Shown here: positions 9,085 through 28,410 of the stretch, piece by piece
Layout: the number at the start of each line of letters is the position of its first letter
Numbering within the stretch: position 1 is the first letter of the stretch
Notes under the pieces: generated by a model
Databases searched by the model: none
What the model was told of the DNA's origin: nothing
What the model saw: only the letters and a program-made list of their open reading frames with translations
DNA from: a virus
DNA: 64,000 nt
Direction: 5' to 3' (one strand)
IMG/VR virus record: IMGVR_UViG_3300044825_001821
Span: 32,001-96,000 of that record
Program-made: the position numbers and the translations under genes

Positions 9085-9460
9085 AGATAAAATTGTTGCA
9101 AATCGAATTCGTACCCCCGATGGTACGATTCTTGAATCTATGCACCGCCACGATTATGTAACCTATGTCGATAAGAATGGCAAAGAATACATGGTCGATG
9201 GCGGCCTTGATTACCTGCGCCGCAATGTACATGATGATGCACCGTATGAAGAACTCTCGGTGTATGCTGATGATCTTCATGTTGAAATTCGTGAGGTATT
9301 CAAGTGGGGTACACGTGGTAAAGATGGTAAGCAACCACTGAAATTTGTACCACTAAAAGACTTGACAACTGAACACATTGAGGCTATACTGGATACTCAA
9401 ACACATATTTCCGATCACATTCGAAAAATATTTTTGAATGAATTGGCAATTCGTGGATAA
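9074..9460 (+). CDS. conserved phage hypothetical protein (TPDGT.L.S.HRHDY, VDGG..YLRR)
   Basis: ORF with recognisable phage motifs. Confidence 0.75.
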   Translation: MYTEDKIVANRIRTPDGTILESMHRHDYVTYVDKNGKEYMVDGGLDYLRRNVHDDAPYEELSVYADDLHVEIREVFKWGTRGKDGKQPLKFVPLKDLTTEHIEAILDTQTHISDHIRKIFLNELAIRG

Positions 9461-9477
9461 GTTGGATATATACTGAT

Positions 9478-9573
9478 ATGAACAATCTAATACACATTAC
9501 AAAGCAAGCGCCCGAATATCGCACATTTAGCGATAATGGCTCATGGGCACCTGTGTCGGAGGTTTGTGTATAG
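9478..9573 (+). CDS. putative attenuator leader peptide MNNLIHITKQAPEYRTFSDNGSWAPVSEVCV (all 20 amino acids)
   Basis: 31-codon ORF whose 3' end is complementary both to its own 5' end and to the 5' arm of the downstream terminator. Confidence 0.7.
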   Translation: MNNLIHITKQAPEYRTFSDNGSWAPVSEVCV

Positions 9574-9599
9574 ATTGTAATCGTTAGCAGATATACAAC

Positions 9600-9639
9600 A
9601 AACCCCGAAGCCCAAAAAGTTTCGGGGTTTTGTTTTTTT
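9600..9639 (+). terminator. intrinsic terminator (attenuator 3:4 hairpin)
   Basis: aaaccccgaagc / gtttcggggttt 12 bp stem, then tgttttttt. Confidence 0.9.
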
Positions 9640-9665
9640 GATAACGAAAAAAGTTTAAAAAAACC

Positions 9666-9694
9666 TTGACAAGTAAATGGCTGTTCTATACAAT
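9666..9694 (+). promoter_or_regulatory. sigma70-type promoter in front of tRNA array
   Basis: TTGACA(AGTAAA)-17-TACAAT. Confidence 0.85.
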
Positions 9695-9827
9695 GGTCGA
9701 TGTTGAGTGAGTGAGAAAGAAAAAACGGAAGTGAGCGATCCGACTCTGAGAAGAGTTTAGCAAGGGTTGATGCGGTAGGGCAGCTTCGGCATCTGTAATA
9801 GCGATTCCTTGTTAGTTCTTGAATTAT

Positions 9828-9903
9828 GCACCCATCGTCTAGAGGCCTAGGACCCTGCCCTTTCACGGCAGTAACACCGGTTCAAATCCGGTTGGGTGTA
9901 CCA
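9828..9903 (+). tRNA. tRNA-Glu(TTC)
   Basis: cloverleaf, loop CTTTCAC, encoded CCA. Confidence 0.92.
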
Positions 9904-9954
9904 AGTTCTTAATAGGAGACCTGTCATGGATAGTGACAAGAGTGGTAAGATGAA

Positions 9955-10030
9955 GGGAGTATAGTCAAACGGTTAAGACAGCGGACTTTTAATCCGTCAG
10001 GTCAGGGTTCGAATCCCTGTGCTCCCACCA
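9955..10030 (+). tRNA. tRNA-Lys(TTT)
   Basis: loop CTTTTAA, GTTCGAATC, CCA. Confidence 0.92.
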
Positions 10031-10064
10031 TATAAAAGTATTTTGATTCAGAGTATTTTTATAT

Positions 10065-10142
10065 GGCACTTTAGCATAGTTGGCCTAATGCGCTGCCCTG
10101 TCACGGCAGAGATCACGGGTTCGAATCCCGTAAGTGTCGCCA
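10065..10142 (+). tRNA. tRNA-Asp(GTC)
   Basis: loop CTGTCAC, GCCA end. Confidence 0.92.
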
Positions 10143-10149
10143 GAATTAT

Positions 10150-10224
10150 TGCCAAGTAGCACAGTGGTAGTGCAGTTGACTGTTAATCAATTGGTCGTTG
10201 GTTCGATCCCAACCTTGGCAGCCA
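10150..10224 (+). tRNA. tRNA-Asn(GTT)
   Basis: loop CTGTTAA, GCCA end. Confidence 0.92.
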
Positions 10225-10593
10225 GTATCCCGCTTACCGTTAAGTGTCAAGTAACGGCGATCCTAATGTCGAAAATGATTAGGCGTATTGTGAGCGTCAA
10301 TCACACGGCAGAACAGAAAATCATATGATAATGCCGCAGAGTCCCGCTTACATGGGAGCCTTATGAAAATACTGTTCCGGTAGCAAGCCAGGCCACCGAT
10401 ATAATAAATTGGACGGACAGAGTAACTGCTCAGTCTAGGGCTTATGGGAGTAAGTAGCTAGACACCTTAATTGTGTTATCTGTAAGCCATGGGCTTGATC
10501 ATGCCTGAGTAACTATGTACACAGACGGTAAATCCGGCCGGCTATTCCGTTGAGCATAGCAAATAGTGCAGATAACACAATTAAGGTAACTGT

Positions 10594-10667
10594 TGGGGAT
10601 TAGTGAAATGGTATCACACCGGATTTTGATTCCGAGGTCGTAAGTTCGATTCTTACATCCCCTGCCA
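10594..10667 (+). tRNA. tRNA-Gln(TTG)
   Basis: loop TTTTGAT, weak 1:72 pair, GCCA. Confidence 0.9.
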
Positions 10668-10674
10668 AATTATT

Positions 10675-10758
10675 GGGTGACGAGCAGCACTGGTGACTGC
10701 ACCTGACTGTAAATCAGACGCTTCGGCATACTTGGTTCGACTCCGAGGTCACCCACCA
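10675..10758 (+). tRNA. tRNA-Tyr(GTA)
   Basis: loop CTGTAAA, extended variable arm, ACCA. Confidence 0.9.
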
Positions 10759-10932
10759 GTAAACTTGAGTTGTGGCAAGTATAGTCCACAAACAGGAGTG
10801 TAACCTGATTCATACAAAGATAAGTATGAAACGTGAATGAGCCATCTTTTGACCGTGTTCTTTAGGCAGGAAACACATAAGAAAACGGCAGGCGTTAAAC
10901 GTGATTACAATCGCCTAGGTAATCAAAGTATT

Positions 10933-11007
10933 CGGTCTTTAGTAAAATGGATATTACGGCGGGCTACGGACCCGCAGGTGGGAGTTCGATTCTCTCAGGA
11001 CCGGCCA
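10933..11007 (+). tRNA. tRNA-Arg(ACG)
   Basis: loop CTACGGA, GCCA. Confidence 0.9.
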
Positions 11008-11099
11008 TATTGAAACACATTGAATCCCAAGGGTACGAGGGGTGGCTGTAGGCCTATATTCCGGTCGATGGGTTCGATTCCCGCAGTGTGTTTCAATAT

Positions 11100-11175
11100 G
11101 GGGGATTGGTGCTAATTGGGAACACATGTGCTTTGCAAGCATGAGTAAGCAGTTCGAATCTGCTATCCTCCACCA
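11100..11175 (+). tRNA. tRNA-Ala(TGC)
   Basis: loop TTTGCAA, G3:U70, ACCA. Confidence 0.9.
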
Positions 11176-11185
11176 AAGTTTTATT

Positions 11186-11261
11186 GCCGGTTTAGCTCAT
11201 CTGGTAGAGCAGGCGCCTTGTAAGCGTCAGGTGGTGGGTTCGAGTCCTGCAACCGGCACCA
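11186..11261 (+). tRNA. tRNA-Thr(TGT)
   Basis: loop CTTGTAA, ACCA. Confidence 0.92.
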
Positions 11262-11269
11262 AGTTTTAT

Positions 11270-11347
11270 CTGAGTGTAATGTCAGCCCGGTAGACGGCCT
11301 GGTTTGGAACTAGGAGGCCGTAGGTTCAAATCCTACCACTCAGACCA
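11270..11347 (+). tRNA. tRNA-Pro(TGG)
   Basis: loop TTTGGAA, C1:G72, ACCA. Confidence 0.92.
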
Positions 11348-11349
11348 AT

Positions 11350-11425
11350 TGCGGGTTAGGGAAGAGGTCATCCCGTCAGGTTCATATTCTGAAGATCGTT
11401 GGTTCGAATCCAGCACCCGCTACCA
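11350..11425 (+). tRNA. tRNA-Met(CAT), initiator-like
   Basis: loop TTCATAT, 1:72 mismatch; lacks the full 3 G:C anticodon-stem pairs. Confidence 0.8.
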
Positions 11426-11439
11426 ATTATAGGTGACTT

Positions 11440-11910
11440 ATGTTTAAAAAAGAAATTGACTTAAATGAAGTGGCTGCGTTTCTTGATAAATGTGGTCCCG
11501 ATACGAAAGTTTATATTGGTGCGGACAGTGAACGTTTTCAAATCAATGGCGACTGGTTTGCTGATTACATTCTAGCAGTTGTAATTCACATTGATGGTCG
11601 TCACGGCTGTAAGATATTCGGTGCCGTACAACGTGAACGTGATTTTGAACAAAAGAAAAATCGTCCACGTTTTCGTTTGATGAATGAGGTATATAAAGTT
11701 TCAGAATTGTATTTGAAATTGTATGAAGTTATACCACATGACATACAAATTCATCTGGATATCAATCCAAGTGAAATGCATGGCAGTTCATGTGTAGTAA
11801 ACGAAGCGATTGGTTATATCAAAGGTACATGTAATGTTGTACCACTGATCAAACCAAAAGCATTTGCAGCATCATATGCGGCTGATCGTTTCAAAAGTTT
11901 AGCAGCATAA
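11440..11910 (+). CDS. YkuK-family RNase H-like protein inside tRNA array
   Basis: YIGADS, RLMNEV, IHLDIN, KP.AFAASYAAD motifs. Confidence 0.8.
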   Translation: MFKKEIDLNEVAAFLDKCGPDTKVYIGADSERFQINGDWFADYILAVVIHIDGRHGCKIFGAVQRERDFEQKKNRPRFRLMNEVYKVSELYLKLYEVIPHDIQIHLDINPSEMHGSSCVVNEAIGYIKGTCNVVPLIKPKAFAASYAADRFKSLAA

Positions 11911-11919
11911 AAAAGTAAT

Positions 11920-11994
11920 GCGGGTATAGCACAGTGGTAGTGCGACACGTTGCCAACGTGTAGGTCATCAGTTCGAATCTGATTATCCGCTCCA
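11920..11994 (+). tRNA. tRNA-Gly(GCC)
   Basis: loop TTGCCAA, TCCA end. Confidence 0.92.
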
Positions 11995-11999
11995 GGTAT

Positions 12000-12073
12000 T
12001 TCGGTGTGGCGTAATGGCAGCGCAGGAGTCTCCAAAACTCTTAGTGGGGGTTCGATTCCCTCCACCGAAGCCA
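12000..12073 (+). tRNA. tRNA-Trp(CCA)
   Basis: loop CTCCAAA, GCCA. Confidence 0.92.
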
Positions 12074-12076
12074 AAT

Positions 12077-12171
12077 GGTAGACAGCACTGGTGTGCGGCG
12101 GAGACTTATAAACTCTGGAGAGTGGCTAGATGGGCTGCAACGGCTAGGTTCGAATCCTAGGTCTACTACCA
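12077..12171 (+). tRNA. atypical tRNA-Ile(TAT) with long variable arm
   Basis: GGTAGAC/GTCTACT acceptor, loop CTTATAA, about 25 nt variable region, 95 nt. Confidence 0.7.
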
Positions 12172-12183
12172 GTGTTTTTTGGT

Positions 12184-12257
12184 GTGGCCATAGTGTAACG
12201 GTAGCACTAGACATTGTGACTGTCTCAGTTCGGATTCAAATTCCGATGGTCACCCCA
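12184..12257 (+). tRNA. tRNA-His(GTG)
   Basis: loop TTGTGAC, C73 discriminator, no encoded G-1. Confidence 0.88.
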
Positions 12258-12266
12258 AAAAATATT

Positions 12267-12342
12267 GGTGCTTTAGCTGATGTGGTCATAGCAGTGGCCT
12301 GAAGAGCCTCGGAAGTTAGTTCGATTCTAACAGGCACCACCA
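12267..12342 (+). tRNA. tRNA-Phe(GAA)
   Basis: loop CTGAAGA, ACCA. Confidence 0.9.
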
Positions 12343-12343
12343 T

Positions 12344-12417
12344 TGTCCTGTAGTTAAATGGTATAACTGTCGATTGATAATCGACCATTACAAGTTCAAT
12401 TCTTGTCGGGACAACCA
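12344..12417 (+). tRNA. tRNA-Ile(GAT)
   Basis: loop TTGATAA, ACCA. Confidence 0.9.
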
Positions 12418-12422
12418 GAATT

Positions 12423-12497
12423 GGTAGTGTAGCATAATGGTAGTGCGCCACCTTCATACGGTGTTAGGTGTAAGTTCGAATCTTACCACTACTACCA
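12423..12497 (+). tRNA. tRNA-Met(CAT), elongator (or Ile2)
   Basis: loop TTCATAC, ACCA. Confidence 0.85.
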
Positions 12498-12498
12498 A

Positions 12499-12574
12499 GC
12501 GCCGGTGACGGAACGGTATACGTGTTGGTCTTAGAAACCAAATTCTGAGAGTTCGAATCTCTCCTGGCGCACCA
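12499..12574 (+). tRNA. tRNA-Leu(TAG), short variable arm
   Basis: loop CTTAGAA, 76 nt. Confidence 0.88.
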
Positions 12575-12580
12575 GTATTT

Positions 12581-12654
12581 GCCTTGTTAGTTTAATGGTA
12601 GAACTCTGTCTTTACACGGCAGTTACGGTGGTTCGATTCCATCACAAGGCACCA
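12581..12654 (+). tRNA. tRNA-Val(TAC)
   Basis: loop TTTACAC, ACCA. Confidence 0.92.
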
Positions 12655-12661
12655 GTATCAT

Positions 12662-12739
12662 GCAACGGTGGCAGAGTGGTCCAATGCAAGAGTCTGCAAA
12701 ACTCTAAAGCCGTCGGTTCAAATCCGACCCGTTGCTCCA
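12662..12739 (+). tRNA. tRNA-Cys(GCA)
   Basis: loop CTGCAAA, U73 TCCA. Confidence 0.92.
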
Positions 12740-12744
12740 AATAT

Positions 12745-12834
12745 GGAAGTGTGGCAGAGTCCGGTTTATTGCACCTGTCTTGAAAACAGACGTATCGAAA
12801 GGTACCGTGAGTTCGAATCTCACCGCTTCCGCCA
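12745..12834 (+). tRNA. tRNA-Ser(TGA)
   Basis: loop CTTGAAA, long variable arm, GCCA. Confidence 0.92.
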
Positions 12835-12847
12835 AATAGGAGAAAAA

Positions 12848-13009
12848 ATGTTGATACTTACAACAATGCTGACGATGATATTTTATTGGGTATTGTTTGG
12901 TTTATCTGTAACGGCATTTTTATTCGTGATGTATGGTATCGCAATAGTATCTGGAGTGTTGGCCGAGTTGGTCGAAGGCACTTTCCTGCTAAGAAAGCAT
13001 ACCCCATAA
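12848..13009 (+). CDS. small membrane protein overlapping tRNA-Ser(GCT)
   Basis: AGGAG SD at 12838, hydrophobic N-terminal 35 aa. Confidence 0.45.
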   Translation: MLILTTMLTMIFYWVLFGLSVTAFLFVMYGIAIVSGVLAELVEGTFLLRKHTP

Positions 13010-13044
13010 GGGTATCATTGGTTCGAATCCAATACACTCCGCCA
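12953..13044 (+). tRNA. tRNA-Ser(GCT)
   Basis: loop CTGCTAA, long variable arm, GCCA. Confidence 0.92.
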
Positions 13045-13045
13045 C

Positions 13046-13074
13046 TTGACAACGTTTTTTCATTGATATATAAT
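13046..13074 (+). promoter_or_regulatory. sigma70-type promoter
   Basis: TTGACA-17-TATAAT. Confidence 0.9.
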
Positions 13075-13098
13075 GTTTACTGTCGCATGGAGAAAGAA

Positions 13099-13260
13099 AT
13101 GAAAGGTAAAACTTTGAAAAAACTGTCCAAACCACGGAATTTTGTGGCAAAAGACTTATTCACACCGAAATATCGAATAAGAGTTGAGCACTCATCTGTA
13201 AATTTTTACAATCGTGCTTCCGAAAAACAAAATTTCCGAAAACAAAATGTCTATTTTTAG
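13099..13260 (+). CDS. small basic protein (PRNFVAKDL.TPKYR)
   Basis: GGAG SD, ATG 13099. Confidence 0.65.
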   Translation: MKGKTLKKLSKPRNFVAKDLFTPKYRIRVEHSSVNFYNRASEKQNFRKQNVYF

Positions 13261-13684
13261 AAAAAAAGTTGAAGAACCCGTCGATCCACCCGTTTCAGGT
13301 AATGAAATGGATGATTTTGACGGTTTTTATTTTGTTCCTGATGATGATGACTTTGAAAATAACTATAAAATGATATTTTTCAACATGAAAGATGAATATT
13401 CCAACTCAAAACCAGTTGAGAGTTCACACATGGGGCTAAAATATCACTTGTGTTTTTTCAAAACCGATGAAAATGGCGCTCCTGTGTTTGATGATGCGTT
13501 TGAAGCCATACTTGTTGACCCTTTAACGTATGTGAAGAGCATGACAGGCTCAGGAATTGGTGGTTGTGTCTTGAAAAAGACAGAAAAATCGGATGGATGG
13601 TGGACTGATTACTTGAATTTCATCACCGGTGGCGAATTTAAGCAAAAAGTAAGAGAGGCATTCGGTTCTATCGCAAACAATTGA
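13247..13684 (+). CDS. hypothetical protein
   Basis: ORF overlapping previous; ATG 13247. Confidence 0.7.
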   Translation: MSIFRKKVEEPVDPPVSGNEMDDFDGFYFVPDDDDFENNYKMIFFNMKDEYSNSKPVESSHMGLKYHLCFFKTDENGAPVFDDAFEAILVDPLTYVKSMTGSGIGGCVLKKTEKSDGWWTDYLNFITGGEFKQKVREAFGSIANN

Positions 13685-13710
13685 TCATGAAAGTGAGGAT
13701 TGATAAATTT

Positions 13711-14004
13711 ATGGAAAAAATATTCGACCCAAGTTACAAAGATTACAAAACAAGCCGTAAATGGCTGATTGGTTTGCTCGAAAGTGAGATTGTAGAAATT
13801 ACTTTCTTAAAAAAAGACGGAACTGAACGTATAATGAATTGTACGTTACAAGAAGATTACTTACCAGAAACAGTTGGCTCTGATAAAGATAAAAATAGTG
13901 ATGCACTTGCGGTTTTTGATGTAGACAAAGAAGATTGGCGCTCATTTCGTTGGGATTCAGTAAAACGAATTTCATTTTCTATTGGTGGAGAACATAATGC
14001 CTAA
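13711..14004 (+). CDS. SH3/WYL_2-like beta-barrel protein
   Basis: ITFLKKDGTER.MNCTL, VFDVDK..WRSFR. Confidence 0.75.
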   Translation: MEKIFDPSYKDYKTSRKWLIGLLESEIVEITFLKKDGTERIMNCTLQEDYLPETVGSDKDKNSDALAVFDVDKEDWRSFRWDSVKRISFSIGGEHNA

Positions 14005-14287
14005 GTATATCGTAGAACAAATTTCTGTACACCGCAGTGTATTTGTGGTCGAAGCGGATAACCAAGAAGATGCTAAAAAAGTTGCGGCAGTTGCCGATGA
14101 CAATTGGCAACAATGGCTTGGTCAACTTGATGTTGATGTGAATGAGTATTCTGAAGAAAGAATTGCTTATTTCAAACACAAAGATTATTTCTGGGATGGT
14201 GTTTCATACAAAGACAGTGATGGATACCTTGCATATCATCACCCATCAGGTGAAGATATAGAACGTAAGGAAATTGTCATTCGTTAA
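13997..14287 (+). CDS. hypothetical protein
   Basis: GGAG SD. Confidence 0.7.
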   Translation: MPKYIVEQISVHRSVFVVEADNQEDAKKVAAVADDNWQQWLGQLDVDVNEYSEERIAYFKHKDYFWDGVSYKDSDGYLAYHHPSGEDIERKEIVIR

Positions 14288-14293
14288 TCAAAT

Positions 14294-14371
14294 GCGGACG
14301 TAGTGTTCAACGGTTAGCACGTGAGCCTTCCAAGCTTGAAGTGAGGAGTTCGAATCTCCCCGTCCGCTCCA
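14294..14371 (+). tRNA. tRNA-Gly(TCC), outside main array
   Basis: loop CTTCCAA, TCCA end. Confidence 0.9.
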
Positions 14372-27744: not shown

Positions 27745-28410
27745 ATGCGAATATTTGAACATGTAAAGTTACCGCAACTACAATTTGATCTGAATGCTGA
27801 AACTACCGATAGTGGTAGACTTTATACTACGCCAGAAGGCAACAAGTATAAGTCTATCACTACGGTGCTTTCTAATTACAACAAGCAATACATTATGGAA
27901 TGGCGTAAGGCTGTTGGTGAAGAGCAAGCAAATAAAATATCAAGCAAGGCAGCAAATCGTGGTACAAAAGTACACAAAATATGTGAAGATTATCTGAACA
28001 ATGAAATACCAGAACTGAAGATGCAGATGATGATGCCTGATCTGAAGGAATTATTCTTCAAGATCAAGCCTTACATTGATGAGAATGTCGGCAAGATTTA
28101 CTCACAAGAGCAAGCACTTTACTCCGACAAATATCGTATTGCTGGCCGGGTAGACTTAATTGCCGAGTGGAATGGTAAGTTGTCGGTTATTGACTTCAAA
28201 ACTTCCACGAAGCAAAAAGACGAAGAGGATATTCAGAATTACTTTATGCAGTGTACAGCATATGCACTGATGTTTGCTGAACGAACTGGTATGTGGATTG
28301 ATGATATTGTGGTGCTGATTGCTACTGAAGAAGGTCCGGCGCAGGTCTTTGAGCGCCAGATTCATGATTATCGTGTGCCTCTATTAGAGTATATTGATAA
28401 ATATGCCTGA
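27745..28410 (+). CDS. PD-(D/E)XK exonuclease
   Basis: SITTVL, RGT.VH, AGRVD, IDFKTS, YF.Q..AYA. Confidence 0.88.
   Translation: MRIFEHVKLPQLQFDLNAETTDSGRLYTTPEGNKYKSITTVLSNYNKQYIMEWRKAVGEEQANKISSKAANRGTKVHKICEDYLNNEIPELKMQMMMPDLKELFFKIKPYIDENVGKIYSQEQALYSDKYRIAGRVDLIAEWNGKLSVIDFKTSTKQKDEEDIQNYFMQCTAYALMFAERTGMWIDDIVVLIATEEGPAQVFERQIHDYRVPLLEYIDKYA

Follow-up and report, generated by a model that had tools for sequence, protein, structure and literature searches.

What is a short open reading frame (ORF) that spells all 20 amino acids doing directly upstream of a transfer RNA (tRNA) array that itself serves all 20? The question arises in the stretch of viral DNA analysed here (the window: 64,000 nucleotides, bases 32001-96000 of the 172,439-bp virus record IMGVR_UViG_3300044825_001821, which has direct terminal repeats), which comes from freshwater metagenomes and encodes T4-like baseplate genes. 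How phages time and dose the expression of their tRNA genes is largely unknown, and bacterial tRNA genes are, to our knowledge, thought to be controlled at their promoters and not by attenuation. We consider it probable (roughly 0.7) that the ORF, at 9478-9573, encodes the leader peptide of an attenuator of transcription that is mediated by the ribosome and senses general translation capacity. The ORF is one of a family of leaders found at the head of large tRNA arrays in an uncultured clade of T4-like freshwater phages. The elements on which the argument turns are the following, the promoter-like sites here and throughout being consensus matches and not mapped starts.

9362-9390, plus strand: promoter-like site P1 (TTGACA-17-TATACT), within the DUF7695 gene upstream, at its 3' end, and 87 nucleotides before the leader start codon
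9478-9573, plus strand: leader ORF, 31 codons, 20 of 20 amino acids, stop codon TAG
9517-9535, plus strand: hairpin in the middle of the ORF (codons 14-20), free energy -10.1 kcal/mol, z -2.5
9556-9573, plus strand: region 2, the last codons and the stop codon, 5' strand of the putative antiterminator
9591-9608, plus strand: region 3, the partner of region 2, overlapping the 5' arm of the terminator
9600-9640, plus strand: intrinsic terminator, a stem of 12 pairs (6 of them G-C) and then a T run
9666-9694, plus strand: promoter-like site P2 (TTGACA-17-TACAAT, matching the consensus at 11 of 12 positions), downstream of the terminator and upstream of the first tRNA
9828-13044, plus strand: tRNA array, 22 tRNAs found by ARAGORN plus tRNA(UAU), with an RNaseH-like gene inside

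The presence of all 20 amino acids in the leader is far above chance and specific to its reading frame. The probability of finding 20 kinds in 31 codons is 1.2e-4 with the amino-acid frequencies of the window and 4.7e-4 with pooled frequencies, and only one of the 222 small ORFs of the window reaches this number. The same holds beyond the window. Used as a query, the upstream DUF7695 gene brought up 60 viral loci, the nine closest of which keep the same 31-codon ORF with synonymous and composition-preserving changes. A DNA pattern made of the ORF end and the terminator arm matched 16 viral and 33 metagenome stretches, and the leaders found by it include some with entirely different peptides (L063 with 38 codons and 20 kinds of amino acid, L075 with 31 codons and 19 kinds, L090 with a GTG start, 32 codons and 20 kinds, and also L089 and L074); four of the metagenome matches (L082, L088, L093 and L094) have no ORF, terminator or tRNAs and were discarded as chance matches, their number being about that expected. 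The RNaseH-like gene (PF04308) embedded in the array, finally, led to 80 further loci, in which nearly every array of at least 20 tRNAs whose start lies within the locus is preceded by a 31-42-codon ORF and a terminator. The peptides of these leaders are unrelated and nearly always contain 20 kinds of amino acid. The leader ORFs of these loci include the following, given by locus and coordinates; the last entry is a further example from the family.

L140:2503-2625, leader ORF
L144:2120-2248, leader ORF
L146:3015-3113, leader ORF
L149:2035-2151, leader ORF
L154:91-213, leader ORF
L162:2430-2537, leader ORF
L174:766-870, leader ORF
L184:2124-2237, leader ORF
L191:327-452, leader ORF
L192:1484-1591, leader ORF
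L195:2486-2590, leader ORF
L173:2500-2616, leader ORF, further example

Altogether 27 leaders were collected, from related, uncultured phages that fall into 10 very different lineages. Between lineages their peptides are almost unalignable and composition alone is kept. A leader-peptide attenuator requires an ORF, and every lineage has one, 29-42 codons long, with the all-20 composition in that frame alone: 20 kinds are found in 8 of the 10 lineage representatives, while the five other frames of the leaders contain 14-18 kinds and are interrupted by stop codons, and in most lineages nucleotide shuffles attain the observed number of kinds in 0-1% of trials. The RNA motif alone yielded 32 distinct peptides, of which 16 contain 20 kinds, eight 19, seven 18 and one 17; by comparison, 20 kinds occur in 3 of 547 other small ORFs (29-42 codons) of the same loci. 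The family has its limits too. The leader region of the window has no blastn match among GenBank phages. Small arrays (6-14 tRNAs) of more distant phages with the DUF7695 or the RNaseH-like gene have no such leader, and a 27-tRNA array (L181) lacks a leader ORF; in its place a G+C-rich, hairpin-rich stretch (L181:2200-2553) precedes the first tRNA.

Variation within the lineage of the window shows what is being kept. Variable sites are distributed over codon positions 1, 2 and 3 as 11, 11 and 16, so that the peptide sequence itself is not strongly conserved, and all 20 kinds are nonetheless retained in 12 of 15 variants, as compared to 6.4 expected from random replacement at the same positions. 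Glutamine and glutamate exchange places between codons 10 and 13, proline and glutamine are swapped as well, and in one sub-lineage the leucine is gone from codon 4 and is back at codon 27. All of these changes preserve composition, each with a probability of about 0.02.

The RNA that surrounds the ORF end has the makings of a switch. A terminator stem of -12 to -23 kcal/mol followed by a T run is found in 17 of 17 representatives, and when the 3' arm of the terminator is omitted from the fold, the ORF end pairs in all 17 with a segment that includes the 5' arm, the stop codon lying within this pairing in most lineages. In 14 of the 17, regions 2 and 3 pair more strongly with each other than with shuffled partners (z -2.4 to -6.1). 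Since indels in the alignment of the leaders (A1) shift the helices, covariation was tested free of alignment by comparing own with cross-lineage duplexes of regions 2 and 3: the helix sequences vary between lineages, and the own pairing, with a mean of -20.1 kcal/mol versus -15.7 kcal/mol for cross-lineage pairings, is the better one in 10 of 10 lineages (Wilcoxon p=0.001). For positions 9545-9645 of the window the antiterminator is the minimum-energy fold and the terminator the centroid fold, which suggests that the two structures compete closely. The hairpin in the middle of the ORF shows no change at any codon position in 18 sequence versions, and comparable hairpins appear in the folds of the other lineages; it is possibly a pause hairpin for RNA polymerase.

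In the window the 5' part of the ORF (region 1) pairs strongly with region 2 (-23 kcal/mol, z -2.7), which it does not in the other lineages, and a three-helix model that includes this pairing was therefore rejected as a general scheme. This pairing may help to fix CTA and ATA at codons 4-5 in the lineage of the window (lineage A), where these codons are predicted to pair with the region of the stop codon. An Rfam match to the 'rnk leader' over the terminator (29.5 bits, cut-off 55) was taken as mere terminator likeness. Contigs from RNA libraries cover the 3' half of the leader, and in a relative one of them bridges the terminator, but because such contigs show no transcript ends and carry-over of DNA is possible they were not used as evidence.

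Promoter-like sites frame this structure on one or both sides. Almost all leaders have a sigma-70-like site upstream of them: P1 of the window (11 of 12 matches) is also present in the relatives L126 and L132, and in other lineages the site is located 6-46 nucleotides before the leader. In three lineages the -10 element ends only 6-9 nucleotides before the leader start codon (L173:2460-2502, L140:2460-2505 and L154:50-93), and the leader mRNA would thus be leaderless there. On the downstream side, a site like P2 occurs between terminator and array in the window and in six other lineages (7 of 10), and is absent where a tRNA directly follows the terminator. Most close relatives of the window, as well as lineages B and E, have no second promoter-like site and their first tRNA begins 2-35 nucleotides past the T run, so that it would be transcribed by read-through only. 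Judged by such consensus matches, the first tRNA would depend on the upstream promoter in most lineage-A relatives and in lineages B and E, but neither in the window nor in the six other lineages with a P2-like site; given P2, control of the array by the leader in the window would be partial at most. A different motif, TATAAATA, occurs only 6 times in the whole genome (32 expected), always 5-33 nucleotides upstream of an ORF start, and its sites look like T4-type late promoters; in the sub-lineage of L008, L064 and L071 it stands just before the leader start codon.

How might such an arrangement work? We propose that the leader ORF is translated and that the ribosome and RNA polymerase run a race over it. 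A ribosome that arrives at the stop codon in step with RNA polymerase would cover region 2, upon which the terminator would form and transcription from the upstream promoter would stop. Were the ribosome late, be it due to slow reading of any of the 20 codon kinds or to poor initiation, region 2 would pair with region 3, no terminator would form and transcription would proceed into the tRNA genes. The purpose would be to top up the tRNA supply when translation falters. As every amino acid is represented about once, and those with several tRNAs by a few codons more, the leader would gauge overall decoding capacity and not the supply of one amino acid. That the leader, often on a probably leaderless mRNA, raises transcription of the complete tRNA set each time ribosomes or any one aminoacyl-tRNA run short is a more specific proposal, to which we give even odds.

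The tRNA genes which such a switch would serve, and those in their vicinity, comprise the following further features.

10224-10594, 10758-10933 and 11007-11100: long spacers between tRNAs, without a credible ORF
11440-11910: RNaseH-like gene (PF04308/DUF458), embedded in the tRNA array
12076-12171, plus strand: tRNA(UAU), non-canonical; variable arm long, anticodon loop CUUAUAA
13046-13074, plus strand: perfect promoter-like site, 12 of 12 consensus matches, heading three ORFs and tRNA-Gly(TCC)
14294-14371, plus strand: tRNA-Gly(TCC), outside the contiguous array, found by ARAGORN

The tRNA(UAU), which ARAGORN missed in the window, has a G1-U72 pair and A73 followed by CCA, and positions 12076-12168 give a weak Rfam match of the tRNA-Sec type. 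Long-arm tRNAs are normally specific for leucine, serine or tyrosine; the homologues of tRNA(UAU) (about 95 nucleotides) in other lineages and in Stenotrophomonas phage DLP_6 are called Ile(tat) by ARAGORN. Two further tRNAs have the anticodon CAT and may be initiator, elongator methionine or lysidine-modified isoleucine tRNAs. Relatives of the RNaseH-like gene are encoded on more than 400 viral contigs and lie among tRNA genes in the loci fetched, a location that hints at a role of its product in tRNA processing or repair. Outside the window, 14 kb upstream of the array, the genome contains a pair of tRNA-Leu(TAA) and tRNA-Arg(TCT) genes (genome positions 27861-28024), a pair that closes the array in other lineages. 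A permuted tmRNA of the two-piece type with the tag peptide ANDDYYALAA is encoded by the phage at 29078-29450.

Several points weigh against the predicted attenuator. The leader of the window has no clear Shine-Dalgarno sequence, and because each amino acid occurs only once or twice its sensitivity to a single shortage would be lower than that of leaders with codon runs. With the pairing of regions 1 and 2 being strong only in the window, an untranslated RNA would default to read-through in most lineages, and where a strong P2-like site is present, as in the window and six other lineages, read-through would merely add to constitutive expression. The element is found in no cultured relative: none of the three examined (Stenotrophomonas phage DLP_6, Synechococcus phage BUCT-ZZ01 and Xanthomonas phage BUDD) has a convincing leader. 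Finally, promoter, ORF and terminator can also be read as a self-contained unit. This would be the case if the ORF were an independent small gene, producing a micropeptide or a terminated short RNA that acts in trans and merely adjoining an array with a promoter of its own, as the promoter-like sites on both sides in the window and six other lineages would allow. Attenuator-derived RNAs and leader peptides with functions in trans are in fact described for Sinorhizobium (PMC6614838 and PMC7298713). We consider this highly unlikely all the same, as it does not sit well with peptides of which only the composition is kept, with an ORF end that always pairs, and co-varies, with the 5' arm of the terminator, or with the several lineages whose first tRNA has no promoter other than that of the leader. 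Least probable to us is that the terminator is a plain operon terminator and the ORF a translated spacer which lets it form by holding ribosomes off it and which senses nothing. The layout of the window invites the idea, since the leader ORF starts 17 nucleotides after the DUF7695 gene and the terminator is the first one past that gene, and ribosome proximity does affect terminator efficiency (PMC4824070). However, the idea leaves unexplained both the frame-specific all-20 composition that is kept in 10 lineages and the co-varying antiterminator, and lineages with a different upstream gene have dedicated promoter-like sites upstream of their leaders.

Could the leader instead list, isoacceptor by isoacceptor, exactly those tRNAs that stand behind it? 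An earlier note on this DNA had claimed as much and had taken the match as support for the attenuator that is independent of RNA structure. The description on which this claim was built is largely correct. The array does encode tRNAs for all 20 amino acids, and its 22 tRNAs found by ARAGORN already cover the 20 when taken with Gly(TCC); the anticodon TAT of tRNA(UAU) stands, ARAGORN being silent in the window and calling the homologues of relatives Ile(tat); and the leader uses CTA for leucine, CGC for arginine, GGC for glycine, ATA and ATT for isoleucine and AGC, TCA and TCG for serine, with neither GGA or GGG nor an internal ATG codon. Array tRNAs can read 29 of 30 codons, the exception being CCC, which Pro(TGG) would not read under standard wobble. 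The tRNA-Gly(TCC) lies outside the array as stated, but the promoter-like site held to be its own precedes three ORFs before it, and it is not the only tRNA gene outside, given the Leu(TAA) and Arg(TCT) pair beyond the window. What does not hold is the weight placed on the match. With the peptide fixed and the codons redrawn from the synonymous usage of the genome (48,007 codons), the fraction of leader codons readable by array tRNAs is 0.97 versus 0.93 expected (p=0.34), and that of array anticodons with a leader codon 0.95 versus 0.88 expected (p=0.18); genome usage gives a chance of about 0.3 that TTR and AGR codons are both missing, and of 0.77 that the glycine codon is GGY. Where a leader with all 20 amino acids precedes an array with all 20, near-complete agreement codon by codon is virtually automatic and thus cannot be counted as independent evidence. 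The attenuator has good support, but most of this support comes from elsewhere than the codon match, and whether the tRNAs of the window are ones that the leader controls, as the earlier note had put it, is uncertain in view of P2 between terminator and array.

Across the family, the 27 leaders and their downstream tRNA sets, grouped into 10 lineages, give a mixed answer, which locus ends and tRNAs missed by ARAGORN make noisier, so that the true coupling of leader and array could be somewhat stronger than it appears. With ordinary, relaxed wobble (U34 in four-fold boxes reads A, G and U) the arrays read the codons of their own leaders at a rate that does not exceed the one for codons redrawn by genome usage (0.862 versus 0.871, p=0.81), the very outcome that the earlier note had named as refuting its index. 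An excess does appear with strict wobble (0.814 versus 0.754, p<0.0004), but it is due to the codon bias of the leaders in four-fold boxes: they are enriched in codons directly cognate to U34, G34 and I34 anticodons that are common to all these arrays. Own arrays slightly outscore arrays shuffled among lineages, both in codons read (0.862 versus 0.835, p about 0.01) and in anticodons represented in the leader (0.895 versus 0.875, p about 0.004). This effect amounts to less than one codon per leader (p range about 0.004-0.03), persists when single lineages are dropped and fades when two are, and there is no signal when arrays are shuffled only within lineages (p=0.60). Some individual cases do look like indexing. 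TTA or TTG occurs in the leaders of seven of the eight lineages whose arrays contain Leu(TAA) and in neither of the two without it, tRNA-Phe and the phenylalanine codon are jointly missing in L107 and in L183/L200, and the amino-acid counts of the leaders track isoacceptor number (partial p=0.007) better than proteome frequency. Others do not: the amino acid is still present in the leader in 15 of 17 cases of a tRNA missing from the array. In the lineage of the window, five relatives without tRNA-Leu(TAG) retain a CTN codon, the relocated leucine at codon 27 is TTG while the array has Leu(TAG) only, and the glycine codon is GGA in 7 of 18 versions, the close relatives with GGA having the same layout, with Gly(TCC) equally remote. 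The case for an exact index is therefore weak and we regard such an index as unlikely, the more so as the leaders are enriched in C-ending codons, which U34 tRNAs are unable to read, and a promoter-like site separates leader and array in the window. In our reading the leader is a loose, family-level roster with about one codon per kind of tRNA, which at most relaxes slowly after the loss of a tRNA gene.

The codon bias just mentioned is a property of the leaders in its own right. Throughout the 27 leaders of the 10 lineages, T-ending codons of four-fold boxes are avoided about five-fold and CGC is strongly favoured over CGT, contrary to the phages' own usage. In four-fold boxes served by U34 tRNAs only, T-ending codons number 7.8 versus 37.5 expected, whereas those ending in A or G are enriched (73 versus 52), as are those ending in C (20.1 versus 12.0); for arginine, the counts are 7.7 versus 1.9 expected for CGC and 0.3 versus 5.4 for CGT. 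Two-fold boxes of the leaders show no avoidance of T-ending codons. Matching to tRNAs accounts for this bias only in part, and the choice of codons, with A or G at the end in four-fold boxes and CGC for arginine, appears loosely tuned to tRNAs of the array type and not to a particular array.

How does this attenuator compare with known ones? The classical attenuators of enterobacteria, the trpL, hisL, pheL, leuL, thrL and ilv leaders, contain runs of codons for the amino acid or amino acids of their own operon. The phage leaders resemble them in that a short ORF, translated there and probably here as well, is located in the 5' leader and its end pairs alternatively with the 5' arm of the terminator, in that ribosome position would decide which hairpin forms, and in a mid-leader hairpin that is a possible pause site. 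They differ in that they are encoded by phages and contain all 20 amino acids about once each in place of runs, in that tRNAs and not enzymes lie downstream, in that the spacing of their promoter-like sites would in several lineages give a leaderless mRNA, and in that pairing of regions 1 and 2 is not general and a second promoter-like site often follows the terminator. As in our proposal, the pheM leader of the pheST operon and T-box riboswitches respond to how much usable tRNA there is and regulate genes that serve decoding. However, pheM senses phenylalanine only, a T-box works without an ORF by directly binding a single uncharged tRNA, and neither controls tRNA genes or senses all amino acids. 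A further parallel is offered by the erm and cat leaders and by the hflXr attenuator (PMC6310831), where slow translation of the leader relieves termination or unmasks the downstream gene. These leaders, in contrast, respond to ribosomes stalled by antibiotics at specific peptide motifs, are not composed of every amino acid and regulate resistance or rescue factors. A full-text search of the literature turned up no account of attenuators or leader peptides upstream of tRNA genes. The family of attenuators with pan-amino-acid leaders thus appears to be undescribed, and the comparative evidence strongly supports it.

What would it mean for these phages? With every amino acid in it, such a leader would give a textbook mechanism a new design, in that it would read global translation capacity and not one metabolite. 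Current ideas about phage tRNAs are that they replace degraded host tRNAs or evade defences that target tRNAs (PMC10264068). The attenuator bears on both ideas, as its trigger, if it operates as proposed, could be the decay of host tRNAs or an attack by tRNA-cleaving defences. It would tie the tRNA arrays of these phages to a feedback loop and would be the first described case of feedback control of tRNA genes by leader-peptide attenuation.

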